This document shows, piece after piece, positions 238-17,314 of a stretch of 32,000 bases of DNA. The stretch is from assembly GCF_017876815.1 (NCBI RefSeq), contig NZ_JAGIOS010000003.1:780001-812000 (forward strand). The letters run 5' to 3'. Positions within the stretch are counted from its first letter, which is position 1, and the number at the start of each line of letters is the position of its first letter. Source of the DNA: Sinorhizobium meliloti (GTDB lineage Bacteria > Pseudomonadota > Alphaproteobacteria > Rhizobiales > Rhizobiaceae). A program made the position numbers and the translations under genes. The notes beneath the pieces were generated by a model. It saw only the letters and a program-made list of their open reading frames with translations, did no database searches and was not told the DNA's origin.

Positions 238-480
238 TCGATGCGGGAAAGCTGTTCTATAGGGTGGTAGCCGCCGTCGATGAAGAACGTATCGCCGCGC
301 GGCCTCGTATGCGAACAACGCAGTGCGCCTCCGCCATCATCGTTGCTCCCCCCATCAAAGCAGAATGTTTGAGGGCGCCCGTCTCACAAAGGCCTGTTTG
401 AGGCTCATGTTGTGTCGAACGCCGGCCTGCGCGCTACCGATCGAAACGAGGCGTGTGGCCGCCTGCCTGATATTGACAGC
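234..480 (-). pseudogene. Decayed 3' remnant of a FabI/SDR-type reductase gene
   Basis: The reverse complement of 234-296 reads GDTFFIDGGYHPIEQLSRID-stop. This parallels the C-terminus of the intact FabI next door (GQVLYVDGGYHIVD-stop). Upstream similarity fades and needs frame changes. There is no start codon. Only the last 100 nt or so is convincing. Confidence 0.35.
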
Positions 481-492
481 TCCTATCCCGCG

Positions 493-1278
493 CTAGTCGA
501 CGATGTGGTAGCCGCCGTCGACGTAAAGCACCTGGCCGGTTATGAGTCGCGCCGCGTCGTGGGCGAGAAACGCGGTCGCCATGCCGACGTCATCAATGTC
601 GACGAGCTCGTTGGCCGGTGCCTTCAGCTTCGTCTTTTCAAGCAGCGCGTCGAATTCCGGGATACCGGAAGCGGCTCGGGTGGCAAGCGCCCCCGGCGAT
701 ATGGCGTGGACGCGAATGCCCTTGGAGCCAAGCTCGGCGGCCATGTAGCGCACGGCGCTTTCGAGCGCTGCCTTGGCGACCCCCATGATGTTGTAGTTCT
801 CCACCACCACCTGTGACCCGTAATAGGTCATTGTGAAAAGCGTCCCACCGTTCTTCATCAGCGGCTCCGCGAGTTGCGCCATACGGATGAAGGACCAGCA
901 GGAAATCTCCATCGTAGTCAGAAACCCCTCGCGCGGCGCATCGGTCACACGCCCGCCGAGGGTGTCCCTCGGGGAGAAGGCGATCGAGTGGACGAGGAAG
1001 TCGAGCTCTCCCCAGGTTTCGCCGATGCGCTCGAAGACCGCCTCGATCTGTCCAGGCACCGCCATGTCGAGCGGCAGGAAGATCGGGGCGTCGAGCTCGC
1101 GTGCCAGCGGCTCGACATGTGGCTTTGCCTTGTCGTTGAGATAGGTCACCGCGAGTTCCGCGCCCAAGGCACGAAACGCGCGGGCACAACCCCAGGCAAT
1201 AGAGCGATCGTTGGCAATGCCGACGATCAGGCCCTTACGACCTTCGAGAAGCTTGGCCTTGACGGTTGGAATGGACAT
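493..1278 (-). CDS. fabI: Enoyl-[acyl-carrier-protein] reductase (NADH), FabI family, 261 aa
   Basis: ORF 493..1569 trimmed to ATG 1276-1278 (MSIPTVKAKLLEGRKGLIVGIANDRSIAWG...). It has an SDR/FabI N-terminal nucleotide-binding motif and the YVDGGYHIVD C-terminus. It starts 14 nt after the ackA stop. Confidence 0.9.
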   Translation of the reverse strand: MSIPTVKAKLLEGRKGLIVGIANDRSIAWGCARAFRALGAELAVTYLNDKAKPHVEPLARELDAPIFLPLDMAVPGQIEAVFERIGETWGELDFLVHSIAFSPRDTLGGRVTDAPREGFLTTMEISCWSFIRMAQLAEPLMKNGGTLFTMTYYGSQVVVENYNIMGVAKAALESAVRYMAAELGSKGIRVHAISPGALATRAASGIPEFDALLEKTKLKAPANELVDIDDVGMATAFLAHDAARLITGQVLYVDGGYHIVD

Positions 1279-1292
1279 GCGGCAGTCTCCAG

Positions 1293-2477
1293 TCAGGCGT
1301 TGGGAGCGCTGATGAGCGCCAAGGTATGGCGCGCGATCATCAGCTCTTCGTCGGTTTGAAGGACATGAACGGCAACCCGGCTCTCGGCCGTTGAGATCAA
1401 CGCAGCGCCAGCCTCGTTTGCCGCCGGATCGAGCTCTGCCCCGAGCCACGCGAGGCCTTCGACGATACGTGCGCGGATCGAGGGCGAGTTCTCGCCGACG
1501 CCCGCGGTAAAGACGAAGGCATCGATTCCTCCCAGTGCCGCCGCGAGCATGCCCGCATTGAGCACACACCGGTAAACGAAATGAGCAACGGCGAGCGCGG
1601 CATGTGGGTCGTCACTCGCCAGAAGATCGCGCATGTCGTTCGAGAGGCCCGACAACCCTTTGAGCCCGGCGTCATGATAGAGGAGATCCGAGACGGCTTG
1701 CGCCTTCATGCCCTTCTGGAGGATCAGGTAGAGGACGACGCCCGGATCGAGCTGGCCCGGCCGCGTCCCCATCGGCAACCCGTCGAGGGCGGTGAAGCCC
1801 ATTGTGCTCTCGATGCTGCGGCCGTCGCGCAACGCGCACATCGAAGCACCGCTGCCGAGATGAGCGACGACGACGCGCCCCTTGGCCGCTCTCGACGCCA
1901 CGTCTCGGAGCCGCTCGGCGATATATTCATACGAAAGTCCGTGAAAGCCGTAGCGCCGGACACCCTCATCATAGAAGCTTCGCGGCAGGGCATAGCAATC
2001 GGTGTGCCTGGCGTGGCCACGATGAAAGGCAGTATCGAAGCAGGCGACCTGTGGCACATCCGGATTGATCTCCATCGCCAGACGAATCGGCGCAAGGTTG
2101 TTCGGCTGATGCAGAGGTGCGAGGTCCTGGTAGCCTGCGAGGCGGTCGAGCACGTCCGCATCGATCAGCACGGGCCGCTTGTAGTCGGGACCGCCGTGCA
2201 CGACCCGGTGACCGACTGCCTGCAACTCGAAGCCCTCCAGCGTTAGGAGCCAGTGTCTAGCCTCGGTAATGGCGGCCGGAAGATCGCGAACTGCCTTCGC
2301 GTCATAGGTCTGGTCGATGAGTTGGGTGCCGTCGGCCGCCGTCGCCTGCAGACGCGGCCGGGTCCCGATGCCGTCGACTTTCCCGCGAATCTGATGCGTC
2401 AGGTCCATGCCGGCGATGCCGAAAACCTGGAACTTGAGGCTCGATGAGCCGGCGTTGACGACAAGGAGCGCGTCCAT
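1293..2477 (-). CDS. ackA: Acetate/propionate-family kinase, 394 aa
   Basis: ORF 1293..2630 trimmed to ATG 2475-2477 ([19 protein letters not shown]..., the classic AckA N-terminus). Also HRVVHGG, FHGLSY and TAGVGENS motifs. It starts 4 nt after the pta stop at 2482. Confidence 0.9.
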
Positions 2478-2481
2478 GGCG

Positions 2482-3438
2482 CTACACCGCTGCCACTTGC
2501 GCGGCCCGTCGCCGCGCGGAGCAGAGCGCAGCGACAGCGCATGATGCAAGGCGCGTGCGCACCGAATCCGCCCGTGAGGTGAGCACGATCGGCACACGGG
2601 CGCCAAGGACGATGCCGGCTGCATCAGCATGGGTAAGAAAAGTCAGGTTCTTGGCCAGCATGTTCCCGGCTTCGAGATCCGGCACCACGAGGATGTGGGC
2701 GTGGCCGGCAACCGGCGAATTGATTCCCTTGATGCGCGCGGCTCCCGGATCAATCGCGTTGTCGAAGGCCAGTGGTCCTTCAAGCAGGCCGCCCGTGATC
2801 TGGCCGCGTTCGGCCATCTTGCAAAGCGCGGCGGCTTCGATCGTCGAAGGAATTTTGGCCGTCACCGTCTCGACCGCCGAAAGAATGGCAACACGGGGCT
2901 CGCCGAGACCGATCGTGACCCAGAGATCGATCGCGTTCTGCACGATGTCGCGCTTGGCTTCGAGGTCAGGAAAGATGTTGATCGCCGCGTCCGTGATGAA
3001 CAGCGTGTCGGCGTGGCCGGGCACGTCCATCACGAAGACGTGGCTGATTCGCCGCTCGGTCCGAAGGCCCGTGGCAGAGGCGGCGACCTCGTGCATCAGT
3101 TCGTCGGTATGAAGGCTGCCCTTCATCAGGAGTTCGCCCCTGCCCTCGCGGATCAATGCGACCGCCTTGGCGGCCGCGGCATGGCTGTGCGGGACATCGA
3201 CGATCTCTCGCCGCCCAAGATCGAGCCGGTGTTCCGCCGCGACATTGCGGATCTTGGCTTCCGGCCCGACCAGTATAGGCGTGATTAGCCCCATCTCGGC
3301 GGCTTCTATGGCGCCACTCAGCGAAGTTTCATCGCAAGGATGCGCCACGATGGTGACCGCGGGCGCCTCGGCTCGTGCGGCCGCAATCAGGCGGTCATAT
3401 TTGGACGGCTGGGTCGCCAGCGTGGTCACCTCGGACAC
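2482..3438 (-). CDS. pta: Phosphate acetyl/butyryl-transferase (PTA_PTB single-domain, Ptb-like size), 318 aa
   Basis: Full ORF. Only the catalytic PTA_PTB domain is present ([10 protein letters not shown]..., [10 protein letters not shown]..., GNMLAKNL...). It lacks the long N-terminal domains of E. coli-type Pta. An 18-nt gap separates it from the upstream gene. Confidence 0.85.
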
Positions 3439-3456
3439 TCGGAACTCCCTCTCCAG

Positions 3457-5673
3457 TCAGGATGCGTTGCGATCACGTGCGGCCTTGCGCACCATGAGAG
3501 GGACCGGCGCTTCGCCGCTCAGGCCAAAAAGCGCTGTCACGCTTTGCAGCCGCTCGGCGGCAATGCCAGTCAGCAGCCCGGGAGCCTCCAGGACCTCTCG
3601 TAGCGCGGCAAAGGCAGCGCGGCGTTCCTCGATTTTCTCCGGCAGCAATTTTGGAATGGCCGCAAGCGCCGCCTCCTCGTCGACCAGCAACATGAAATAC
3701 TGCGTGCGCATCAGTGCCTTGAACTCGGCAAGCGTCAATTGCTTGGCGGAGGGATGAGCGCGCCGAAGTCGACGGACCGTTTCGAAACCGCGCTCATCGA
3801 CTCTGCCGCGCGCCATGCCGACAAAGAGCAGCGCCCGGGCGAGTGCCTCCCGAAGCCCGCCCTTTGCCATGTCAGCTTTGAGCGCCGCGATCCTGTTTTC
3901 CAGCAGCGCGTGGTGCAGCAGGTTCTTTGCCGCCTTGCGTGGACGGCGCTCGGTCTTCGTGTCGATACCGAGCGCGGCTTGCAAGGCGGGCGCGCCATAG
4001 ACCGCGCGGAACGTCTGTTCTGAAAGATGTTCGACCATCTGTCGCCAAGCTTCCAGCCCGTCGACGACCTGCCGGGACATGTTCTCTTGTAGCGCGAGGA
4101 GCGGGTTGTCAGGCGCCGCCGGTTGACGCGCGTCGCGGACGAGCCCGGCGGCCGCCTGGACCCAAGCCATGACGGGATTGCCAGGACCGAACACTTCATA
4201 TTGCAAGCGCAACGGGTGGATGCTCCGCATCGCCTCCGCCATCGGTGGCGTCACCATCCCCTTGATCCAAGGCTGCAGGTAGGTTCGGTACAGCGCCAGA
4301 TTGATCTCCGAGACTCGGGCGGCCGCAGCGAAGCGGCGGTCGTCCTCAAGATCGTTGCCGCCGAAGGCACGGATGTCGTCGAGCGTGCGCGCCTCGCAGC
4401 GCATAATCCATTCGCCGCTGACCAAGTCCGGATTCTCGACAGCCGGCCCCACTGGCTCCAGCACCGCTTCGTAAAGGCCGGGCGGCAGCACGTCGATCAG
4501 GTCGATATTCGAGGCGAACTCGTCGTGTTCCTTGCGGGCCACACCGGCGGAAACAAAGATGCCGAGGTGCCCGATCTTCTCGTGCACCGTGTAGACGATG
4601 GTCTGGCCGTGTGCACGGATCTCGTCGACGCTGTCGTAAAGATCCAAAATCCAGTCGAGCGCCTGCGCCGGTGGAGTGATGTTGTCGCCCTTTGAGCAGA
4701 AGACGACGATCGGCGAGCGGATGTTGCGCATGTCGATGGTGGTGCCGTCGGAGGTCTGGATCTCGCCCGCCGCAAGCTTGTTGCCGACGAAGAGCTCATC
4801 GACGATGAACTGCATCTCCTCTGCATTCAGCCTCACATGCCCGCCCCACCAGCGCTCGAAGCCGAGATAGCGGCCAGCCTCGGTGTCTACCTTGGAATAG
4901 AGGTTATATTGCTTGGTCCAGAGCGTGTTAGCGGGGTTCTGGTTCTCAAAGTTCTGCACCAACCAGGCGCCATCGAATATGCCGGCGCCAAGATCGCCGG
5001 TCAGCGCAGTCAGCCAGCTGCCGCCAAGCAGGCCTCCCGAATAGCGCATCGGATACTGGCCCCGGATACCTGCCCAATAGGAAAGCGGCGCGCCCGCGAT
5101 AATAATCGGGCCGAACAGTTCCGGGCGCAACGAGGCAAGGATCATCACGGCCCAGCCGGCCTGGCAGTTGCCGATGACGCAGGGCTTGCCATCGGCATCG
5201 GGGTGGCGGGCGATCACTGTTTCGAGGAAGATCGCTTCGGAGCGAGTGATATCCTCAATGGTTTGGCCGGGAACCGGTTCAGGAAGAAAGCCTATGAAAT
5301 AACAGGCGTGGCCCGCCTTCATCGCGACCCCGATCTCACTGTCTGCCTTGAAGCCACCAATGCCGGGTCCGTGGCCGGCGCGCGGATCGACGACGACAAA
5401 CGGCTTTTTCAATGGATCGATCACCGCGCCGGCGGGCGGCACGATCCGGACGAGTGCATAGTTGACGGGACGATCGAGCTTGCGGCCGTCGCAGACGAGT
5501 TCCGCATCGTAGTCAAGCACGTTTGGCGCGGGCTGCGCCGTATGCTCTTCGTACTGCGCCGCGCGCTGCCGCATCACGTCCAGAAACAGGATGGAGCGTT
5601 GCCAGGCATCGAGCGCATAGGCGTAGGCATCCGCAAGGGTCGGTATTGTCGGGATCGAGGATTGCTCAGGCAT
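3457..5673 (-). CDS. DUF3141 alpha/beta-hydrolase-fold protein (PHA synthase/depolymerase-like), about 738 aa
   Basis: ORF 3457..5718. I prefer ATG 5671-5673 (MPEQSSIPT...) because GAGGAG lies 8 nt upstream and the predicted anaerobox-driven TSS (about 5713) is downstream of the 5718 ATG. The N-terminus AYALDAWQRSILFLDVMRQR and the IGNCQAGWA box (G-x-C-x-G nucleophile elbow) are as I recall for DUF3141. Confidence 0.8.
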   Translation of the reverse strand: MPEQSSIPTIPTLADAYAYALDAWQRSILFLDVMRQRAAQYEEHTAQPAPNVLDYDAELVCDGRKLDRPVNYALVRIVPPAGAVIDPLKKPFVVVDPRAGHGPGIGGFKADSEIGVAMKAGHACYFIGFLPEPVPGQTIEDITRSEAIFLETVIARHPDADGKPCVIGNCQAGWAVMILASLRPELFGPIIIAGAPLSYWAGIRGQYPMRYSGGLLGGSWLTALTGDLGAGIFDGAWLVQNFENQNPANTLWTKQYNLYSKVDTEAGRYLGFERWWGGHVRLNAEEMQFIVDELFVGNKLAAGEIQTSDGTTIDMRNIRSPIVVFCSKGDNITPPAQALDWILDLYDSVDEIRAHGQTIVYTVHEKIGHLGIFVSAGVARKEHDEFASNIDLIDVLPPGLYEAVLEPVGPAVENPDLVSGEWIMRCEARTLDDIRAFGGNDLEDDRRFAAAARVSEINLALYRTYLQPWIKGMVTPPMAEAMRSIHPLRLQYEVFGPGNPVMAWVQAAAGLVRDARQPAAPDNPLLALQENMSRQVVDGLEAWRQMVEHLSEQTFRAVYGAPALQAALGIDTKTERRPRKAAKNLLHHALLENRIAALKADMAKGGLREALARALLFVGMARGRVDERGFETVRRLRRAHPSAKQLTLAEFKALMRTQYFMLLVDEEAALAAIPKLLPEKIEERRAAFAALREVLEAPGLLTGIAAERLQSVTALFGLSGEAPVPLMVRKAARDRNAS

Positions 5674-5747
5674 CTGTCCACTCCTCGGCGCGACCGAAGG
5701 TCGGCCCCATTCCTGCATACAAATATGAGCACGATCTTTGTTGAGCG

Positions 5748-5761
5748 GTGATCTGCGTCAA
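5748..5761 (-). promoter_or_regulatory. FixK/FNR-type anaerobox (GTGATCTGCGTCAA, 9/10 to TTGAT-N4-GTCAA) upstream of the DUF3141-pta-ackA-fabI operon
   Basis: Read directly. On the minus strand, 22 nt after the box lies TATTTG (plus 5720-5725), within CATATTTG. This is class-II (-41.5) geometry with a TSS near 5713, 40 nt before ATG 5673. Confidence 0.5.
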
Positions 5762-5857
5762 AGAAGGCGAGCGGCAAGGCCGCAACATTATCCAATTATT
5801 GAAAACCCGTGGATGGCTCTGGTTTTATGAGATTTTATTTTACGGGTTCGAAGAGCA

Positions 5858-5873
5858 TAACAATGCCTTGTTA
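5858..5873. repeat. 16-bp inverted repeat TAACAA-TGCC-TTGTTA in the AT-rich operon upstream region
   Basis: Perfect 6-bp arms read directly. Function unknown; candidate operator. Confidence 0.6.
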
Positions 5874-5961
5874 CGGCGGTTTGACAAATCCCAAAAGTTG
5901 CAATGCCCGGCCGACCGTCATCGTCTGAAGCATCGCACTGAAAAGGACCCTCCGCAAGACG

Positions 5962-6137
5962 GCCCTTGAAATTCAAGCCCTAGCCGATGTGGCGGGGTTG
6001 CTCCATTTGATGGTGTACTCGGTTTTCTCAGACAAGAAATCTTCCTACGTGAACTGATTTCGAATGCCGCAGATGCCTGCGAGAAGCTGCGTTACGAGGC
6101 GATCGTTGCGCCCGAACTGCTCGGCAACGAGCCTGCG
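5962..6137 (+). pseudogene. htpG: 5' fragment of an htpG (Hsp90) gene with a 1-nt frameshift
   Basis: Translation reads [25 protein letters not shown], a frame slip in the A-run near 6038-6041, then [32 protein letters not shown]. This matches the conserved HtpG N-terminus ([34 protein letters not shown]...KLR). Similarity is lost after about 6137. The remaining roughly 560 codons are absent. Confidence 0.65.
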
Positions 6138-6212
6138 CCGCCATCCTCTCCGCCAGCGGTTTCAGCCAACGCTTTGGTTTTGTTTGGCTTGCCAGAACGG
6201 CAAAAGAGGTGC

Positions 6213-6524
6213 TTACACCTCCTCGATGGTTACCGGGTTGGCCGTCATGACGTCGCCGACGCGCCATGAGCATCGCCTGATGAAGGCGTTCGCCCTGTCA
6301 TCGGGATCGATCGCCATGTCCGCCATCAACACCGATGCTTCACTGCAGAGTTCCGCCCGTCGGATCAGGTCGCCCTCGCTGATGACGCCGAGCAAGCGCC
6401 CATCGTCGTCAACGACCGGGACGCCGCTTACGTGGTGGTCGAACATCAGCTTGGCTGCCTGTCTGACGCTGTTGTCAGGCGACAGTTTGACAACCTTTGT
6501 CGTCATCACATCCTTGACAAGCAT
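6213..6524 (-). CDS. CBS-domain protein, apparently 3'-truncated (103 aa)
   Basis: [56 protein letters not shown] is a complete CBS motif. The second motif starts at [15 protein letters not shown] and stops after 15 residues. GGAG lies 10 nt upstream of the ATG. Confidence 0.6.
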
Positions 6525-6794
6525 ATCGATCGAACTCCGGTACAGACGTCTCCGCCACTACGGCACCGCGCCTATAAGACGCGCGAAAGTTGTTGTAGCG
6601 CTTTGGATCGCTGCGAAGCTGAGTTGAGCCATACTCAAGCAAGCTCCGCGACGATCTCAAGCGTGGCCCATCGAGATCCCGCCTGATTGTGAACTCCTCC
6701 ATTCTGTGCTGCCATTCGGAAAAGCGAATTGCAGCGGAAAGATGCTGAACGCCGACTTCCTCGTGTGACGATAAGGCCAAAGGGACCGTTGGCA

Positions 6795-6808
6795 TTGACC
6801 GGAGTCAA
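6795..6808 (-). promoter_or_regulatory. Perfect FixK/FNR anaerobox TTGACCGGAGTCAA
   Basis: 10/10 to TTGA(T/C)-N4-(A/G)TCAA. On the minus strand TATCGT (TAnnnT) follows after 21 nt. No comparable -10 exists on the plus side. It would give a leader of about 235 nt to the CBS gene ATG (6524). Confidence 0.55.
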
Positions 6809-7085
6809 TATATCGACACTTGCTCCGGCGAATCGAGAAGCTCGTCCGGCGCTGCTTTCGTCGATATCGGCGCGTTGCAGGATGCTCCCCGACAAACTCG
6901 CCCAGCCTCTGCCACAGCAGAAGCTATGCGGACGCAACCCGCGCCTAAGCCAGTCCGCCGGGAGCGCGCCCGCTCCGCCTGGATTTGATGGAGATCAATG
7001 CGCAGAAGGCGGTGTTGGTGTATGTGCGATCAGAGACTGGGACCGCCCTTCGTTCAAGCCGAGGAGTAGACCGAATGCCTCAGCA

Positions 7086-7163
7086 ATCGGCAACTGCCAG
7101 GCCGGCTGGGCGCCGATGAGCCTCGCATCGCTGCGCCCGGAACTGTTCGGTCCGATCGTCATC
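7086..7163 (+). pseudogene. 78-nt fragment of a DUF3141 gene paralogue (nucleophile-box region), inverted relative to the intact gene
   Basis: It translates IGNCQAGWAPMSLASLRPELFGPIVI, against IGNCQAGWAVMILASLRPELFGPIII encoded at 5098-5175 (-). My hand alignment gives 67/78 identical nt. There is no similarity on either side. Confidence 0.7.
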
Positions 7164-7200
7164 ACACCAAACGAATGACTTCAAGGGTACCCAGGAGAAC

Positions 7201-7587
7201 ATGGGGACGCCGGTGCTAGATCAAGTGGGGTTCGAATTGATCATATACGTCGCCGAGATTTCAGGACGCGGCATCGCCGCTTTTGACGCAGCCAACGACA
7301 TTGAAGCGCAAGCGCAGTTGGCAAACAGGGGACTCCTACGGGACCTGATTGTCTTGCAGAATGAGGGTCGCGCACTCTGGGATGGTGTCGCGGACATCCA
7401 TTTGCGGACGGCGACCCCTGAGGAGACCGAGATCTGGCAAACAAGCCGGACGGCGGCTGTTCAGTCAGGTGAGGATTCCGATGACGAGGGTCGACATGTC
7501 TTCCTAGTCCCCGTCGTCGATCCTTCTCATGACAATTTCGACGATGACGATAACCCCCACCATGACGAGGACCGTGACGGCGACTGA
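7201..7587 (+). CDS. Hypothetical protein with a strongly acidic tail, 128 aa
   Basis: ATG preceded by AGGAGA at 6 nt. C-terminus DNFDDDDNPHHDEDRDGD. I cannot assign a family. Confidence 0.55.
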   Translation: MGTPVLDQVGFELIIYVAEISGRGIAAFDAANDIEAQAQLANRGLLRDLIVLQNEGRALWDGVADIHLRTATPEETEIWQTSRTAAVQSGEDSDDEGRHVFLVPVVDPSHDNFDDDDNPHHDEDRDGD

Positions 7588-7765
7588 AAACGGATGACGC
7601 GGCCCTGATCGAGGAAGGGGCGGACTGCGTGCGGCTGCCCATCCCCGACATTATGATGCCGTCCGACAAGGTCGACGGATAAGAGCGAGAGTTGGCCGCG
7701 CGGTCAAGCCGAAACCTCCGATCTTCTGGTCGCGCTGCCCGCCAAAAATCAATCCGGAGCGCCCC

Positions 7766-9847
7766 ATGAATAGCGTACAACCCATTCGAATTGGTTTTCT
7801 GCTGCTGGCCGTCGCTCCAATCCTCTTTTGGATGCTGCTTGGAGTTTCCTGGGCACAGCAGGCTCCCGTCGGCGTGCCGCCCGAAAAGGCACAACAGTTC
7901 CTCGATCTGCTCTCGGATCCGGAGGTGAAGACATGGCTCGAGGGTAAGATCCCTTCGGCTGCCGCGGAGCCCCCTGCTGGGTCGCCCGTCGAGACGATAT
8001 CGAGCTGGGAGGCCGCCATCCGCGATCGCTTTAATGGGCTTATGGGCGCAGTTCCCCGCATACCAGAGGAGCTGGCAAGCGGCGCCGCTGTTGTCTCGCG
8101 CGACGTGAACTCGGGCAGGCCCGGGCTGGTGGTCAGCATATTTGCCGTTCTGATTGCCGTTGGCCTCGGCGCCGAGTGGCTGATCCCGAGGGTCTTCGCC
8201 CGGGCACGCAAATCCGGGGCAAACGAGAACGCCGGACAAGAGATCCTGTCCGAGATCGCTGCCTTGCTGACGTTTGCCTTGGCCAGCGTCGGTTCATTCC
8301 TGGCATTCGAATGGCCGCCCTTACTGCGTAAGATCATCCTTACGCTGCTTCTAGCTTTTATCGTGTTTCGGGTCGTCCGAGCGATCGGCAAGTTGCTGTT
8401 TGCCTTGAGCGGCGCCAGCGGCATTGCCGATCAGCCGCCGTCAGCTTTTGAAAGCGATGCGGCCCGTCGTTTCTGGCTTTCGCGGATCAGCATTATTGCC
8501 GGGTTTCTTCTATTCGGCTGGGCCATCGTCAGTCTCATGCCCGCTTTGAGCTTCTCCAATGAGGTGACCCGGCTTGCTGCCTTTCTGTTCGGGTTGGGCA
8601 TTCTGGTAACCGCAGTCGAGGTCGTCTGGCGGCGCCCCGACAAGCCGGCTCCGCTTGTCGTCAAGTCACTGCTTACCCTCTATCTAGTCGTGCTTTGGTC
8701 GGCTTGGGTAGCGGGATTGCTAGGACTGCTGTGGCTGGGCATCTATTCGCTGCTCTTACCGCCTCTGGTGCGCGGCGTTGGCGACGTGGCGCAGGCCTTA
8801 GCGACCAGACAGCGCACCGGCCCTCCCGGCATCGTACTGAGCGTGGTCATAGTCAGGGGTGCCAGGGCAGCGGTGATCGCCGCCGCGGTCGCATGGCTCG
8901 CCTACATCTGGCGCATCAGAGCTGCAGCCCTCGCCGGCAGCGAACCCGGCGCGATCGTGATACCGGGATTGCTCAACGGTATCATCGCCCTCTTGGTCGC
9001 CGACCTGCTTTGGCAGATGTCAAAGGCGTTAATCGCTTATCGGATGGGACTTGGGCCGAAGGACGGTTCCAACGTCGATGAACTCGCCCGCAGCGGCCGG
9101 TTACGGACGCTCTTGCCGATATTCCGCAACGTGCTCGCTGTCTTCATCGGTGCCGTTACCGTGCTGACGATCCTGTCCGGACTGGGCGTGCAGATTGCAC
9201 CGTTGATCGCCGGGGCGGGTATTTTCGGCGTCGCTATCGGATTCGGATCGCAGACGCTGGTCAAGGACGTCCTGAGCGGCGTTTTCTACATGCTCGACGA
9301 TGCCTTCCGTGTCGGTGAGTACATCCAGAGCGGCAGCTACAAGGGCACGGTCGAATCGTTCAGCCTGCGGTCGGTCAGGCTGCGGCATCACCGCGGCCCG
9401 ATCTTCACAGTGCCGTTCGGCGAGCTGGGGGCCGTTCAGAACATGAGCCGCGACTGGGTGATCGACAAGATGACTCTCAACGTCACTTACGATGCCGACG
9501 TAGACCTCGCACGGAAGCTCATCAAGAAGGTCGGCCAGGAGCTGGCTGCGGATCCGGAGTTCGCGGCCGACACGATTGAGCCCTTGAAGATGCAGGGCGT
9601 CGACAGCTTCGGCGACTTTGCGATCGTGCTCAGGATGAAGCTGATGACCAAACCGGGCGCGCAGTTCACTATAAAGCGACGAGCCTTCATGATGATCAAG
9701 AAGGCATTTGATGAGAACGGCATCAAGATCGCGGTTCCAACCGTTCATGTCTCGGGAGGAAGCGACAACGCCGCCGCCGCGCAGCAAGCGCTCAACATGA
9801 GCAAGGCCGCCGAACTGGCGGCGAACAAGGCACCTGTAGGCCTTTAA
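7766..9847 (+). CDS. Large MscS-family mechanosensitive channel with signal peptide and N-terminal multi-TM extension, 693 aa
   Basis: The C-terminal third carries the MscS core (GIFGVAIGFGSQTLVKDVLSGVFYMLDDAFRVGEYI..., beta-domain SVRLRHHRGPIFTVPFGEL). The N-terminus MNSVQPIRIGFLLLAVAPILFWMLLGVSWAQQ is signal-like. GGAG lies 7 nt upstream. Confidence 0.85.
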   Translation: MNSVQPIRIGFLLLAVAPILFWMLLGVSWAQQAPVGVPPEKAQQFLDLLSDPEVKTWLEGKIPSAAAEPPAGSPVETISSWEAAIRDRFNGLMGAVPRIPEELASGAAVVSRDVNSGRPGLVVSIFAVLIAVGLGAEWLIPRVFARARKSGANENAGQEILSEIAALLTFALASVGSFLAFEWPPLLRKIILTLLLAFIVFRVVRAIGKLLFALSGASGIADQPPSAFESDAARRFWLSRISIIAGFLLFGWAIVSLMPALSFSNEVTRLAAFLFGLGILVTAVEVVWRRPDKPAPLVVKSLLTLYLVVLWSAWVAGLLGLLWLGIYSLLLPPLVRGVGDVAQALATRQRTGPPGIVLSVVIVRGARAAVIAAAVAWLAYIWRIRAAALAGSEPGAIVIPGLLNGIIALLVADLLWQMSKALIAYRMGLGPKDGSNVDELARSGRLRTLLPIFRNVLAVFIGAVTVLTILSGLGVQIAPLIAGAGIFGVAIGFGSQTLVKDVLSGVFYMLDDAFRVGEYIQSGSYKGTVESFSLRSVRLRHHRGPIFTVPFGELGAVQNMSRDWVIDKMTLNVTYDADVDLARKLIKKVGQELAADPEFAADTIEPLKMQGVDSFGDFAIVLRMKLMTKPGAQFTIKRRAFMMIKKAFDENGIKIAVPTVHVSGGSDNAAAAQQALNMSKAAELAANKAPVGL

Positions 9848-13997: not shown

Positions 13998-14241
13998 TGG
14001 ATACTCCGGAGTAGAGCTTCGATTCACCGTCCTCTTTCGGGGAACGCTGGCGTCTGCTGGCAGTTCCGTCCCGGTCCGGGTCCGGCAACGGTCCCTCGTC
14101 CTCCTCATCGTCCAGCAGGATCCTCTCGGCCGCTCCGTCGAGATCATCGTACTGCCCGGAGCGCAGCGACCAGAAGAATGCCAGTAGTCCGACGAAGCCC
14201 ATCGCCAAGGCAACCGGGACGAGGAGAGCAAGATAATTCAT
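13981..14241 (-). CDS. fixS: cbb3 oxidase maturation protein FixS/CcoS with an extended acidic C-terminus, 86 aa
   Basis: MNYLALLVPVALAMGFVGLLAFFWSLRSGQYDDLDGAAERILLDD is the CcoS signature. ATGA overlap with the fixI stop (14238-14241). Confidence 0.8.
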   Translation of the reverse strand: MNYLALLVPVALAMGFVGLLAFFWSLRSGQYDDLDGAAERILLDDEEDEGPLPDPDRDGTASRRQRSPKEDGESKLYSGVSNAKHG

Positions 14242-16505
14242 ATCTTTACCGTGGCTGGTTTGGTCGCGCCGAAGGTGCGCGGCCCCTTTTTAACCTTTGC
14301 ACCTTGGCGCAGCGCGTTTCCAACGACGACGATCGAGGACAGCGACATGGCAAGCGCAGCAGCGAGCGGCGTGACCACTCCGCCGATCGCGAAGGGCACG
14401 CTGACGACGTTGTAGACGATTGCCATTGCGAAGTTCTGGCGGATCAGCACGTCGGCCCTCGCCGCGGTCTGGATGATGTCTCGGACAGCCAGCAGGCTCT
14501 GACCGAGAAAAACGAAGTCGGATGCGCTCCGTCCGACGTCCGTTGCCGACGAGGGGGCGATCGACACGTGCGCGGCCGCCAGCGCCGGCGCATCGTTCAG
14601 ACCGTCGCCGATCATCAGCACCTTGCGGCCTGTCGCCGCGAGTGCCCTGATGGCCTCGACCTTTTCACCCGGAAGCAGCTCAGCCGAAAACGCCTCGATG
14701 TCCAATTGCCCGGCGATGGACGAAACCGCGGCACTACGATCTCCAGAAAGGATGCGCACCGAAAGGCCGGCCGAGCGCAGCGTCTGGACAAGCTCGCGAG
14801 CACCGGGACGAACGGTTTCCTCGAACGCGAAAACCGCTATCGCTTCGGCGTCCTTCGACAGCACGGTGGTCGACGACGTTCCCAAGTCGACCTGCTTTGC
14901 AGTCGATGCCCAGGACGGGCGTCCGAGACGGTAGACCGCGTCCCCTGCCCGCCCCTCGATGCCGCAGCCATGAACCTCCTCGAGGCTGTCGAATTCCACA
15001 GGGGCCACGGGCCGTCGAGGGTCTGCCAAGGCGATGGCGACGGACGCGGGATGCCGTGAGACCCTCGCCATCGCGGCTGCCAGAGACAGGAGCCGGGGCT
15101 GAATGTCGCCCGCGTTGACGAGGCGCATCTCGCCGAGGGTCAGCGTCCCGGTCTTGTCGAAGAGTACGGTGTCGATTTCGTTCAACCGCTCGAATGCGGA
15201 TCCGTCGCGCGCCATGATGCCGCGTTCAAAGAGGCGCCTTACCGCAACTACCTGCACCATCGGAACGGCAAGTCCAAGGGCGCAGGGGCAGGTTATGACA
15301 AGTACGGCGATCGCAATGGTGACGGATTTGTGGAGGTCTCCGGTTCCAAAGAGCCATGCGACCATGGAAAGGAGGGCGACGCCATGCACGACTGGCGCAT
15401 ACAGGCTTGCAGCGCGATCCGCGATGCGACGGTAAGTGGAGCGCCCGCTCTCGGCAGCCTCCATCATGCGGGTCATCTCGGCCAGGAAGGAACCGTCGGC
15501 GGATGCGGTCGCCAAGAGGGTCAGCGGATTGGCGAGGTTCATCACGCCCGCCTGCAACGCGCTTCCCAGCGCGGCACGCCTCCACTCGCTCTCCCCTGAA
15601 ACGATCGAAGCATCAAGCTCCGAGGCGCCTTTGACGACAATGCCGTCGACCGGCGCGCGCTCGCCGGCGGCGACAAGCAGACGCATGCCCGGCTGGATCT
15701 CGGAAAGCGGGACGTAGTCAATCGCCTCGTCTGCCTGGACGACACTCGCGCCACGCGGCGAGAGCCTTGCAAGCGCTCCCACGGCGGAACGCGCCCGGCC
15801 CCGCATCAGATGGTCCAAAGTTCGGCCTGCCAGCAGTACGAACAGCAGGGACGTGCTCGCGTCGAAATAGGCAAAGGCCGCGTTGTGAAGGGTGTCGTAG
15901 ACGCTCAGGGCGAAAGCGAGGAGAACGCCGACGCTGATCGGAACGTCCATGTTGGTGCGACCATGCCGCAGCGCCGCCCAGGCCGAGCGGTAGAAGAACC
16001 TCCCGGAATAGACGATCGCCGGCAGAGCGAGCGCCGCCGAGACCAGGTGGAACGCATGGCGCGTCGCGGGATCGGCCCCGGACCAAACCGATACCGAGAG
16101 GATCATGATGTTCATCGCCGAGAAACCGGCGACCGCGAGCGCCTTCAAAAGGGAGGCAAGCACCGGGTCCTGTGTCTCCTCCTCGATGGAGGCCAGATGC
16201 GAAGCATAGCCGATCTTCGCAAGCGCAGCGGCGAAATCCGGACTCTCGTCGTCATTGCCCCGCCAGTTGATGGTGACCCGACGGGTAGACAGGTTCACGC
16301 GTGCAAGCTCGACGCCTGGGATTTTCCGGAGAGCGCCTTCGACGGCAGCAATGCAGGCGGCGCAATGCGCGTCGGGCAACGCCAATGCGATTTGGCGAAG
16401 GCCGTCGCCAAGGTCTCGGCTCGCGAGCCGGATCTCCTGGGGGGAGACGCTCGTCCGTGATGCCGCACCGGCGCTTGGGACGGCTATACCAGAGCAGCAG
16501 GACAT
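14238..16505 (-). CDS. fixI: Cu+-translocating P1B-type ATPase FixI/CcoI, 755 aa
   Basis: ORF 14238..16898 trimmed to ATG 16503-16505 (MSCCSGIAV...), 2 nt after the DUF2189 stop. HMA domain with CAAC, TM CPC motif (ITCPCALGLA), DKTGTLT phosphorylation site, GDGLNDAPAL hinge. Confidence 0.9.
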   Translation of the reverse strand: MSCCSGIAVPSAGAASRTSVSPQEIRLASRDLGDGLRQIALALPDAHCAACIAAVEGALRKIPGVELARVNLSTRRVTINWRGNDDESPDFAAALAKIGYASHLASIEEETQDPVLASLLKALAVAGFSAMNIMILSVSVWSGADPATRHAFHLVSAALALPAIVYSGRFFYRSAWAALRHGRTNMDVPISVGVLLAFALSVYDTLHNAAFAYFDASTSLLFVLLAGRTLDHLMRGRARSAVGALARLSPRGASVVQADEAIDYVPLSEIQPGMRLLVAAGERAPVDGIVVKGASELDASIVSGESEWRRAALGSALQAGVMNLANPLTLLATASADGSFLAEMTRMMEAAESGRSTYRRIADRAASLYAPVVHGVALLSMVAWLFGTGDLHKSVTIAIAVLVITCPCALGLAVPMVQVVAVRRLFERGIMARDGSAFERLNEIDTVLFDKTGTLTLGEMRLVNAGDIQPRLLSLAAAMARVSRHPASVAIALADPRRPVAPVEFDSLEEVHGCGIEGRAGDAVYRLGRPSWASTAKQVDLGTSSTTVLSKDAEAIAVFAFEETVRPGARELVQTLRSAGLSVRILSGDRSAAVSSIAGQLDIEAFSAELLPGEKVEAIRALAATGRKVLMIGDGLNDAPALAAAHVSIAPSSATDVGRSASDFVFLGQSLLAVRDIIQTAARADVLIRQNFAMAIVYNVVSVPFAIGGVVTPLAAALAMSLSSIVVVGNALRQGAKVKKGPRTFGATKPATVKI

Positions 16506-16507
16506 GG

Positions 16508-17314
16508 CTAGCGCAACGCTCTGTAGGCGTGCCAGGTGGCATGCCCGAGCAAGGGGAAGATCACAACAAGACCGATCATCGCCGTGGCTACGCTGACCAG
16601 GAACATCCCTAGCACGATCGCGCCCCAGACGAGCATCGGACGGAGGTTGTTCCAGACAAGCGCCACGCTGACGCCCATTGCCGTGAACGCATCGATGCGC
16701 TGGTCGAGCAGCATCGGTATGGAGAACACGCTGATAGCAAAGGAAAATCCGGCAAAAAGCGCGCCGATGAAAATGCCGACTGCAAGCATGGCCCAGCCGG
16801 TGGGCGTCGTTAGCAGCAGTTGCGTGACATGCCCTAGGCCGGGAAACGGCCGCACCCCGAAGAACAAGGCATAGATGAGCACGGCCGCGCGCATCCACAG
16901 CAGCATGAGCATGCAGAGCAGAAGCCCGGTAAAGAACACCTGGGCGCCGGCCACCGGCCTGACGCGCAGCATGCTCCCGAGACTGACCGGCTCGGATCGC
17001 TCGAGGCGCGAACTCTTCAAATAGAGCCCCGTCGCGAACAGCGGCGCGATGATCATAAAACCTGCAACTGCGGGGAACAGGAAATAGTCGCGTCCGGTGG
17101 CGAACAGGAGCCAGATGATCAGGAAGGAAACCACAAAGACGGCCACCCCGTAGCTCAGGCTGAGCATCGGATACGTGATCAGGTCACGCCAACCTTTCGC
17201 GAGCCACTCAAAGGGTGCCTGGGCCGGCAGATGGCGTTGCCACTTCGGATTCCAGGTCTCCTCTATGCCTGAGACCTCGCCTACCCACCGCTGTAACTTT
17301 CCAGTCCCTGACAT
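16508..17314 (-). CDS. DUF2189 polytopic membrane protein, 268 aa
   Basis: ATG 17312-17314 with GGAGAG 5 nt upstream (the GTG at 17326 is less likely). FEWLAKGWRDL...SLSYGVAVF...AGFMIIAPLFATGLYLKSSRLE matches my recollection of DUF2189. It lies between fixP/orf63 and fixI with gaps of 27 and 2 nt. Confidence 0.75.
   Translation of the reverse strand: MSGTGKLQRWVGEVSGIEETWNPKWQRHLPAQAPFEWLAKGWRDLITYPMLSLSYGVAVFVVSFLIIWLLFATGRDYFLFPAVAGFMIIAPLFATGLYLKSSRLERSEPVSLGSMLRVRPVAGAQVFFTGLLLCMLMLLWMRAAVLIYALFFGVRPFPGLGHVTQLLLTTPTGWAMLAVGIFIGALFAGFSFAISVFSIPMLLDQRIDAFTAMGVSVALVWNNLRPMLVWGAIVLGMFLVSVATAMIGLVVIFPLLGHATWHAYRALR

Follow-up and report, generated by a model that had tools for sequence, protein, structure and literature searches.

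A conserved orfA-pta-ackA-fabI operon of Sinorhizobium meliloti with a predicted PhaC-like DUF3141 protein and an FNR/FixK-type box: a possible route from PHB to ATP at low oxygen

The operon and its conservation

The window (the whole stretch of DNA analysed, 32,000 nt) comes from an S. meliloti megaplasmid of pSymA type; pSymA is the label on the megaplasmid record, and the sequence is 100% identical to that of SM11. The operon described here sits inside a microoxic (fix) gene island on this megaplasmid, and fixN-like and fixI-like genes lie within the same window. Its genes are as follows.

5686-5681, minus strand: GAGGAG ahead of the DUF3141 ATG
3457..5673, minus strand: DUF3141 protein (orfA), 738 aa, ATG start
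2482..3438, minus strand: phosphotransacylase (pta-like), 318 aa, GTG start, single-domain
1293..2477, minus strand: ackA, 394 aa, acetate/propionate-family kinase
493..1278, minus strand: fabI, 261 aa, FabI-type NADH enoyl reductase

The gene calls confirmed four minus-strand genes, as given in a preliminary description, with gaps of exactly 18, 4 and 14 nt in the order DUF3141, pta, ackA, fabI. The tight gaps, the retention of this order in 61 of 80 alphaproteobacterial loci and RNA contigs across every junction all support the single operon proposed there. The RNA-seq contigs, drawn from four studies, span the entire operon and bridge all three junctions; these bridging contigs are the evidence for co-transcription, and contigs alone cannot prove one transcript. 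They extend upstream past the promoter, to 6264, and reveal no start site.

None of the other flanking genes is kept in more than 21 of the 80 alphaproteobacterial loci. At 13 of 20 more distant loci (43-57% identity), Pta, Ack and/or FabI are found within about 8 kb in changed order or strand; the linkage of DUF3141 with pta, ackA and fabI is conserved. FabI adjoins DUF3141 even at loci without Pta and Ack. Four of the 13 linked distant loci encode Pta as a fusion with a MaoC-type (R)-hydratase region; the Pfam model MaoC_dehydratas scored above its cut-off in two of these fusions and below it in one, and the fourth was recognized by similarity to the other fusions only. A hydratase gene was found neither in the S. 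meliloti operon nor in any of the 80 alphaproteobacterial loci.

The genes orfA, pta, ackA and fabI occur in that order on one strand at this locus alone in the genome, which by search contains only one intact DUF3141 locus. Since species and gene order are the same and the locus is the sole one of its kind, it is very probably the operon described by Summers, Denton and McDermott (J Bacteriol 181:2217, 1999). According to two reports citing that work (PMC8231600, PMC5789663), the operon is PhoB-inducible, with a PHO box upstream of the start sites used in phosphate stress, and ordinary phosphotransacetylase and acetate kinase activities were measured from these genes. The preliminary description mentioned phosphate-stress induction of pta-ackA but missed that the operon here is the published one.

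The predicted enzymes

The earlier enzyme assignments were correct, as judged by matches to the PF11339, PTA_PTB, Acetate_kinase and FabI models. The phosphotransacylase, of family PTA_PTB, scores 528 bits against NF008852 (NCBIfam PRK11890 subfamily; cut-off 413), and remains under the cut-offs of both the Ptb model TIGR02706 (298.8 against 410.5) and the Pta model TIGR00651 (75.9 against 311.2). By these scores it falls in its own subfamily, NF008852, and among solved structures it is nearer to Ptb: its closest relative is phosphate butyryltransferase 7vg9 (E 1e-61), compared with 1e-16 for true phosphate acetyltransferases, in agreement with the Ptb-like label given earlier. Against the Pta half of the MaoC-Pta fusion model NF006045 it scores 493 bits. 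The kinase scores 349.4 bits with TIGR00016 (cut-off 293.4). When aligned to Methanosarcina AckA (1g99), it retains the equivalents of R91, H180, V93, L122 and F179, and its Ala230 occupies the site of pocket residue Pro232; alanine stands at this position in 75 of 76 module-linked kinases. The Ptb-like phosphotransacylase and the Pro232-to-Ala pocket of the kinase suggest that the acyl chain may be longer than acetyl. Against a longer chain, the kinase is of the acetate/propionate family and not one of the butyrate kinases. FabI (435.7 bits with NF005717, cut-off 337) carries the Tyr162-x6-Lys169 motif and is the third FabI paralogue in the genome, sharing 48% identity with the two FabI genes on the chromosome.

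The operon might be an ordinary acetate switch, which, when oxygen is low and phosphate short, would convert acetyl-CoA to acetate and ATP or set the level of acetyl-phosphate, with DUF3141 and FabI as accessories that have no part in a common pathway. The NCBIfam names (phosphate acetyltransferase, acetate/propionate kinase), the activities and PhoB control attributed to Summers et al., the retained acetate-pocket residues V93, L122 and F179 of the kinase, and a phosphoketolase (which makes acetyl-phosphate) with adhP a few kb downstream in S. meliloti relatives all speak for it. However, this phosphoketolase neighbour is confined to 9 of the 80 loci and the transacylase is nearer to Ptb than to Pta. 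Moreover, DUF3141 and FabI keep together most faithfully of all, adjoining even at loci that lack Pta and Ack, the linkage persists through shuffling across classes, and MaoC fusions exist. We therefore regard such a switch as rather improbable, and favour a branch of PHB mobilization in which DUF3141 would take part. The parts of DUF3141 are listed below.

Residues about 35-395: predicted PhaC-like alpha/beta hydrolase domain
C-terminal half: family-specific, helical, about 340 residues
5164-5166, minus strand: Cys170 codon
4684-4686, minus strand: Asp330 codon
4567-4569, minus strand: His369 codon

The protein matches PF11339 (DUF3141) with 940.7 bits (gathering threshold 29.7) over model positions 1-581 of 582. 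When its AF2 model (pLDDT 87.9) was compared with known structures by VIA-align, the top seven matches were all PHA synthases (Z 23.3-24.5, rmsd 3.2-4.8 Å, 297-351 residues); gastric and lysosomal lipases ranked next (gastric lipase 21.7), and generic hydrolases reached 19 at most. PhaC was also the top structural match in Foldseek, and the DUF3141 family profile matched PhaC 9knj with an E value of 0.005. In an alignment of 40 DUF3141 sequences (39-93% identity), C170, D330 and H369 are invariant, as are N169, Q171 and G173, and G168 and A172 are nearly so. The preliminary description had likened the nucleophile elbow GNCQAG to that of PHA synthases. Cys170 is indeed present, in the stretch V-I-G-N-C-Q-A-G-W, and G-N-C-Q-A-G conforms to the small-x-Nu-x-small-small elbow, but the strict PhaC box G-x-C-x-G(-G) is replaced by G-x-C-x-A-G. 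A profile search gave no match to PhaC_N (PF07167), and the protein scores under the cut-off of every PhaC model (20.4 bits with the class III model TIGR01836, cut-off 365.3). In the predicted structure, the alpha/beta hydrolase fold carries a Cys-Asp-His triad, as is expected of PhaC. We propose that DUF3141 is a PhaC-like Cys-Asp-His acyltransferase related to PHB synthase.

All 28 genomes of the sample that match DUF3141 strongly also have PhaC_N, which is found in 157 of the 401 genomes as a whole; related genomes are not independent in this count. PhaC is nearly universal in Alphaproteobacteria and the co-occurrence is informative solely in the smaller sample outside that class, where PhaC is much rarer and all 12 DUF3141 genomes have PhaC_N. 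Together, the fold, the triad, the co-occurrence and the MaoC (PhaJ-type)-Pta fusions of distant relatives back the PHA link that had been suggested.

The PhaC-like fold and triad would also suit the synthetic direction, in which kinase and transacylase would turn acetate or other short acids into acyl-CoA for DUF3141 as a new class of PHA synthase, and making polymer would take up electrons at low oxygen or overflow carbon when phosphate is limiting. A Burkholderia review proposes such a role for phaC-pta-ackA-fabI clusters (PMC8231600), and some database entries call DUF3141 proteins PHA synthases. This seems unlikely in view of the missing PhaC_N domain and the 20 bits obtained with the class III PhaC model (cut-off 365). 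In addition, PhaC1 alone is reported to be needed for PHB synthesis in B. diazoefficiens (PMC10888616), and an enoyl reductase and ATP-consuming activation have no obvious purpose in making PHB from acetyl-CoA.

The promoter region

Three elements were noted upstream of the DUF3141 gene.

5720..5725, minus strand: -10-like hexamer TATTTG, 22 nt after TTGACGCAGATCAC
5748..5761, minus strand: FNR/FixK-type box TTGACGCAGATCAC, one mismatch to TTGA-N6-TCAA
5853..5886, minus strand: conserved upstream block TGTCAAACCGCCGTAACA...TTATGCTC, candidate PHO box and upstream promoter

The centre of TTGACGCAGATCAC lies 81 nt ahead of the DUF3141 start codon. The box agrees with TTGA-N6-TCAA at 7 of 8 positions and with TTGAT-N4-ATCAA at 8 of 10, and the 9/10 anaerobox of the preliminary description was thus not reproduced. 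Because the window holds 19 sites with one mismatch to TTGA-N6-TCAA where 8.6 are expected, a lone box of this kind is weak evidence. Across relatives, the FixK-type box is strongly conserved: a perfect TTGA-N6-TCAA box is present at the equivalent promoter position (-50 to -135) in 33 of the 80 orthologous loci, compared with about 0.4 by chance (background rate 0.052 per kb). The spacing of TATTTG from TTGACGCAGATCAC would fit a class II, -41.5-type site. The mismatch in the S. meliloti box counts against a low-oxygen reading.

In NGR234, pta and ackA are up 118-228-fold in bacteroids (PMC3732241). In B. diazoefficiens, blr3456-3459 (hypothetical-pta-ackA2-fabI) are up 4-9-fold in a mutant of phaR that also has raised FixK2 (PMC10888616), and the induction may be a FixK2 effect instead of a direct PHB link. 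The conserved box, the fix-gene neighbours and the expression in these two relatives support low-oxygen control, which might depend on FixK.

The TGTCAAACCGCCGTAACA...TTATGCTC block is kept across Sinorhizobium/Ensifer promoters. It matches the E. coli PHO consensus at 9 of 14 positions, a level that shuffled sequence also reaches; going by the account of Summers et al. as cited in PMC8231600, it may be the PHO box of the PhoB-dependent promoter. The operon probably has two promoters, an upstream PhoB-dependent one known from the literature and a putative class II one of FNR/FixK type.

PhoB control, as cited in PMC8231600 and PMC5789663, could also indicate lipid remodelling under phosphate stress. 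FabI would then be a true enoyl-ACP reductase, DUF3141 a lipase or acyltransferase acting on membrane or storage lipids, and Pta and AckA co-regulated through PhoB only. FabI fits its equivalog model with the Tyr-x6-Lys motif intact, and gastric and lysosomal lipases are structurally next-best for DUF3141. Yet two FabI genes are already present on the chromosome, the promoter element conserved in relatives is the FNR/FixK box with no clear PHO box, and the PhaC co-occurrence and MaoC-Pta fusions suggest CoA esters. Such a role appears highly improbable.

Proposed function and related systems

We consider it plausible, at somewhat less than an even chance, that the module is a low-oxygen branch of PHB mobilization that yields ATP, with FabI as redox sink and the enzyme roles as predicted. 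DUF3141 would take the acyl group from a polyester or oligomer as acyl-S-enzyme and hand it to CoA, reversing the synthase reaction, to give (R)-3-hydroxybutyryl-CoA. A MaoC/PhaJ-type hydratase, which some distant relatives have fused to Pta and which S. meliloti would have to provide in trans, would form crotonyl-CoA, which the FabI paralogue would reduce with NADH to butyryl-CoA. As the operon has no hydratase, the crotonyl/FabI step needs this partner enzyme in trans. The Ptb-like enzyme would convert a short acyl-CoA (acetyl and/or butyryl) to acyl-phosphate, from which the kinase would form ATP and the free acid. All substrates, the direction of flux and the regulators of the module are what we infer, and with them PHB thiolysis, the redox-sink role of FabI and FixK dependence. 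The acyl-CoA-to-ATP reading of the preliminary description is partly supported as a whole: the operon, enzymes, box and PHA link agree with it, but the published identity and the missing operon hydratase had escaped it.

Class I/III PHA synthases (PDB 9knl, 5hz2, 5t6o, 5xav, 6k3c) have an alpha/beta hydrolase core plus cap, as the DUF3141 model does, and a Cys-Asp-His triad at motifs equivalent to GNCQAG, GDNITPP and GHLGIF of DUF3141. They are its best structural matches (Z about 24), yet share only 13-16% identity. In the nucleophile box, the second of the small residues is Ala in DUF3141 and Gly in PhaC, the catalytic Asp is followed by Asn (DN) instead of His (DH), PhaC_N is missing, and a helical half of about 340 residues is added. 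The chemistry proposed for DUF3141 resembles that of PhaZa1 of Ralstonia eutropha, reportedly described by Uchino and colleagues in 2007 as a thiolytic intracellular PHB depolymerase. PhaZa1 is a Cys-nucleophile alpha/beta hydrolase proposed to free 3HB-CoA from PHB with CoA, but it belongs to another Pfam family (PHB_depo_C) and is unlinked to pta-ackA-fabI. The clostridial Ptb-Buk butyrate branch, like the module proposed here, leads from acyl-CoA through acyl-phosphate to ATP via a Ptb-type transacylase; it has Buk, in contrast to the acetate/propionate-family kinase of the present module, whose host is an aerobe.

The same enzyme set is found in the phaC-(phaJ-pta)-ackA-fabI clusters of Burkholderia/Cupriavidus (PMC8231600) and in the MaoC-Pta family NCBIfam PRK08190, whereas Pta of S. 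meliloti has a single domain and the operon has no hydratase in it or close by. The operon of Summers et al. agrees with the present locus in species, in its four genes and in their order; PhoB/PHO-box control was reported for it. The FNR/FixK box, its conservation and a PhaC-like orfA do not figure in the reports citing that work (PMC8231600, PMC5789663). The operon type is already known. To it are added here the conserved linkage, the conserved box, the predicted fold and triad, the PhaC co-occurrence and the presence of RNA, which together suggest a widely conserved four-gene module coupling a PHB synthase relative to enzymes that yield ATP, behind a promoter site of low-oxygen type.

Locus and probable identity with the published operon

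The operon under study consists of four minus-strand genes, and the gene calls reproduced the gaps of exactly 18, 4 and 14 nt that had been noted between them. All four family assignments were backed by Pfam and NCBIfam, in agreement with the enzyme families (DUF3141, transacylase, AckA, FabI) named in the preliminary description.

Genes of the operon and upstream elements (window coordinates)
5886-5853, minus strand: upstream block, TGTCAAACCGCCGTAACA then TTATGCTC, conserved in Sinorhizobium and Ensifer
5761-5748, minus strand: FNR/FixK-type box TTGACGCAGATCAC, one mismatch to TTGA-N6-TCAA
5673-3457, minus strand: DUF3141 gene, 738 aa; ATG seven bases 3' of GAGGAG
3438-2482, minus strand: phosphotransacylase gene, 318 aa
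2477-1293, minus strand: acetate/propionate-family kinase gene, 394 aa
1278-493, minus strand: FabI gene, 261 aa

The window is part of an S. meliloti megaplasmid, with assembly coordinates G000:C3:780001-812000. The stretch 493-5800 matches the SM11 plasmid NC_017327 at 100% identity; with fifteen further S. meliloti megaplasmids, one of whose records is labelled pSymA, identity is 99.5% or higher. According to passages in PMC8231600 and PMC5789663, the S. meliloti ORF-pta-ackA-fabI operon is co-transcribed and shows PhoB-dependent induction on phosphate starvation (Summers et al. 1999); the phosphate-stress induction of pta-ackA mentioned in the preliminary description is found in the same passages. 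In the present genome a single DUF3141 gene is intact, and the gene order occurs at a single locus. Therefore, the operon is very probably the published one, which is known through the citing papers, by species and gene order. The feature is real, and the operon has already been described, with the 1999 operon as the type example.

Neither pSymA nor pSymB of strain 1021 was among the 41 records matching the DUF3141 gene, and 1021 pSymA is present in the plasmid collection searched. The reference strain 1021 seems to be without the operon; since the operon was not found on these two replicons, studies of microoxia or of the FixK regulon in 1021 cannot have detected it. Rm41 and SM11 are among the strains that carry it. 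A second acetate kinase gene (77% identical) stands alone on contig C2 of this genome (G000:C2:48583-49722; 8494-9753 of locus L008), flanked by htpG and a gene for aldehyde dehydrogenase. These two genes enclose the full DUF3141-pta-ackA-fabI operon in many Ensifer species. Because of the shared flanks, the chromid ackA locus looks like an operon remnant, and the pSymA copy is the sole intact one.

Expression and upstream region

The operon stretch was contained in twenty public runs from six studies. Ten of these, from five studies, are recorded as RNA, and they contain 84-97% of the stretch's sampled words. Contigs of 2.9-7.9 kb span the whole operon and all three junctions in three of the four runs compared with the window, at a mean word depth of about 180-270. 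The contigs carry no start, end or strand information, and the bridging is consistent with co-transcription without proving a single transcript. They extend upstream to 6264, all ending where a 96% duplicate starts, and therefore yield no start site.

Some features of these contigs differ between runs. Depth over 6235-6600, which overlaps a CBS-domain ORF, exceeds the depth of the operon by a factor that varies between runs from about 2 to 50. Run X14 contains a 2,082-nt contig (4181-6264, the 5' third of the DUF3141 gene plus upstream DNA) at a depth of 277, while the remainder of the operon stands at about 10, and with a 2-nt deletion at 5378; this pattern could reflect either a strong 5' transcript or a strain whose copy is broken or duplicated. 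Runs X6 and X10, from two studies, yielded 7.9-kb contigs with about 294 extra bases directly after the fabI stop (494/495), which is a strain difference at the 3' end of the operon.

In NGR234, pta and ackA (NGR_b13630, NGR_b13640) are up-regulated 118-228-fold in bacteroids (PMC3732241). A phaR mutant of B. diazoefficiens shows 4-9-fold up-regulation of blr3456-blr3459 (hypothetical protein, pta, ackA2, fabI), together with elevated expression of fixK2 and its targets (PMC10888616); blr3456 would be the DUF3141 gene, judging from synteny with four Bradyrhizobium loci. These published data agree with low-oxygen and symbiotic expression.

The box at 5761-5748, earlier counted as a 9/10 anaerobox, matches only seven of the eight core positions and eight of ten positions of the FNR consensus. 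As a single site it is unremarkable, with 19 one-mismatch boxes in the window compared with 8.6 expected. Among the 80 alphaproteobacterial orthologous loci, however, a perfect TTGA-N6-TCAA is centred 50-135 nt 5' of the start codon in 33, while a background of 0.052 per kb predicts about 0.4 loci by chance. Nearly all Sinorhizobium and Ensifer species are represented among the 33, as are Bradyrhizobium, Ancylobacter and Bosea. The box of the nearest relatives is TTGACGCAGATCAA, from which the S. meliloti site deviates in the last base only. A −10-like TATTTG lies 22 nt after the box, the spacing of a class II promoter, and the −41.5 geometry proposed earlier is thus predicted from it.

The conserved block at 5886-5853 is a candidate for the published PHO box and promoter, but its agreement with the consensus is at chance level. 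A PHO-box consensus scan of the 330 nt upstream gave a best score of 9/14, reached by 73% of shuffles, and the PhaR-type motif TGC-N3-GCA is absent from the same 330 nt. Scans of 300-6900 found no promoter-like sigma-70 site, and terminator-like sites at chance level; an Rfam scan of 5600-7400 gave no match. The operon appears to be under dual control by phosphate and oxygen, and two transcription starts are predicted, near 5713 and downstream of 5853.

Since a FixI-like heavy-metal P-type ATPase gene (14238-16898, minus strand) and a FixN-like cbb3 oxidase subunit I gene (19354-21009, minus strand) lie in the window, the operon is located in a microoxic (fix) gene island. Among the sites listed, none with at most one mismatch to TTGA-N6-TCAA lies just 5' of the fixN-like gene.

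Three degenerate copies of the DUF3141 promoter and 5' gene fragment are found, at 6985-7229 (plus strand) in the window and at G000:C3:778409-778737 and G000:C3:727374-727697 on the same contig. Each has a perfect anaerobox (TTGATGGAGATCAA or TTGACGGAGATCAA) and the same GAGGAG-ATG start, and an internal deletion fuses the N-terminus to the IGNCQAGW region. The copy at 6985-7229 immediately precedes a 128-aa ORF (7201-7587) and an MscS-type channel gene (7766-9847), and has the appearance of a low-oxygen promoter cassette put to new use. A further perfect box, TTGACCGGAGTCAA at 6795-6808, precedes the CBS-domain ORF (6213-6524, minus strand, region 6213-6808), which is possibly split from the ORF at 6475-6795; this segment has its 96% duplicate at G000:C3:777474-777917.

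Conservation of the gene linkage

One genome per species was scanned in the alphaproteobacterial sample, which gave the 80 loci with DUF3141 at 68-95% identity. The neighbourhood survey proposed earlier found the linkage conserved: Pta, AckA and FabI follow DUF3141 in the same order at 61 of the 80 loci. At ten further loci FabI comes straight after DUF3141 or DUF3141-Pta, with no kinase. Because these kinase-less loci retain FabI, it is the most faithful partner of DUF3141. No other flanking gene is common to more than 21 of the 80.

The distant sample comprised 20 loci (43-57% identity) in Pseudomonadota of other families and classes. At thirteen of them the neighbourhood, out to about 8 kb, includes Pta, AckA and/or FabI, with order and strand changed, and in four of the thirteen Pta is fused to a MaoC-type region. 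The Pfam family MaoC_dehydratas was above cut-off in two of these fusions and below it in one, while the fourth was recognised by similarity to the other fusions only. Against the NCBIfam MaoC-Pta fusion model, the S. meliloti Pta reaches 493 bits over the Pta half. The persistence of the linkage through shuffling and fusion is good evidence for a shared pathway with enoyl- and 3-hydroxyacyl-CoA. No MaoC hydratase gene was found near the operon in the window, in its 10-kb flank or at the 80 alphaproteobacterial loci.

In S. meliloti and a few close relatives, genes for phosphoketolase, adhP, a CBS-domain protein and a histidine phosphatase lie downstream of fabI. This stretch is about 2-7 kb below the lower end of the window (about −2180 to −6500; about 3500-7800 of locus L009, 1031-5331 of locus L001). 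Acetyl-phosphate is the product of phosphoketolase, which is a possible second feed into the kinase. The phosphoketolase and adhP genes were rejected as members of the module, being linked at 8-9 of the 80 loci only.

A strong DUF3141 match occurs in 28 of 401 sampled Pseudomonadota genomes (about 7%). All 28 have a PhaC_N-containing synthase, compared with 157 of the 401 overall; twelve of the 28, from five families, are non-alphaproteobacterial genomes, among which PhaC is much less common. Because of the relatedness of the genomes, which are thus not independent, the co-occurrence counts as support for a link to PHA and not as a statistical test.

The proteins and a possible route from PHB to ATP

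The DUF3141 protein contains the motif V-I-G-N-C-Q-A-G-W with Cys170. The PhaC-like box described earlier holds as regards the Cys nucleophile in GNCQAG, but it reads G-x-C-x-A-G and not G-x-C-x-G. Cys170, Asp330 and His369 are invariant in an alignment of 40 sequences (39-93% identity), within the motifs N-C-Q-x-G-W, G-D-x-x-T-P-P and G-H-L-G-I-F-V. The AlphaFold model has high confidence (pLDDT 87.9, pTM 0.88). The best nine Foldseek matches in the PDB are all PHA synthases (E 4e-7 to 2e-6), and the top seven by VIA-align are all PhaC (Z 23.3-24.5, rmsd 3.2-4.8 A, 297-351 residues aligned), spanning model residues ~35-395. Gastric lipase follows (Z 21.7), then generic hydrolases (19 or less). 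The family profile also finds PhaC 9knj (E 0.005), in a match that takes in both the cap and the catalytic Asp, and a published classification places DUF3141 and PhaC in one cluster with a C-D-H triad (PMC11878206).

Helices make up the C-terminal half (about residues 397-738), which, modelled alone, gave pLDDT 82 and pTM 0.47, with no convincing solved relative; a protein-atlas search returned DUF3141 clusters only. A TerB-like relationship (2h5n, Z 8.3, residues 604-728) was rejected as within helical-bundle noise. The idea that B. diazoefficiens PhaC2 (bll6073) belongs to DUF3141 was rejected; in that species the operon is found at another locus, blr3456-3459. Two R. eutropha DUF3141 proteins are reportedly associated with PHB granules, which was not counted as evidence.

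Among solved structures, phosphate butyryltransferase 7vg9 is the nearest to the transacylase (E 1e-61), well ahead of any phosphate acetyltransferase (1e-16), and 'Ptb-like' was thus an apt name for it. The kinase is a true acetate/propionate-family member that retains the equivalents of Val93, Leu122 and Phe179 of the Methanosarcina acetate pocket. At the Pro232 position it has Ala, as do 75 of the 76 kinases linked to the module, which hints weakly at an acyl pocket of slightly larger size. FabI carries the Tyr-x6-Lys motif; two other copies lie on the chromosome, and this third paralogue is 48% identical to them.

A sharper form of the acyl-CoA to acyl-phosphate to ATP idea in the preliminary description is the best-supported reading. 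DUF3141 may act like PhaC in reverse, releasing 3-hydroxybutyryl-CoA from PHB by CoA thiolysis; a MaoC-type hydratase would convert this to crotonyl-CoA, the FabI paralogue would reduce crotonyl-CoA with NADH, and the Ptb-like enzyme and kinase would turn short acyl-CoA into acid and ATP. If part of the 3-hydroxybutyryl-CoA were also oxidised and cleaved to acetyl-CoA, 3-hydroxybutyrate would be turned into acetate and butyrate in redox balance, both acids leaving via the same transacylase and kinase. The scheme would thereby be reconciled with the acetyl activities reported in 1999. The reading is weakened by the lack of a hydratase gene within or close to the S. meliloti operon and by the acetate type of the kinase. 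A thiolytic route from PHB through acyl-CoA to acid and ATP has a little under an even chance. A plain acetate switch is rather unlikely, and a lipid role very improbable.

The full proposal is that DUF3141 is a CoA-dependent PHB thiolase which, with MaoC hydratase, FabI, the Ptb-like enzyme and the kinase, forms an uncharacterised PHB fermentation to butyrate (and acetate) plus ATP, induced by FNR/FixK at oxygen exhaustion in otherwise aerobic PHB-accumulating Pseudomonadota, including nodule rhizobia. We regard it as possible but doubtful. If true, it would explain how aerobic PHB storers, nitrogen-fixing rhizobia in microoxic nodules among them, obtain ATP from PHB and dispose of excess reducing power without respiration, and it would give a function to a large family found in about 7% of sampled Pseudomonadota.

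The opposite, synthetic direction would make DUF3141 a new PHA synthase. The fold matches are to such synthases; by the PhaC family's own sequence tests, in contrast, it would not be classed as a PhaC, because it has no PhaC_N domain, scores 20 bits on the class III PhaC model against a cut-off of 365, and has alanine for the second glycine of the nucleophile box. This alternative is improbable.
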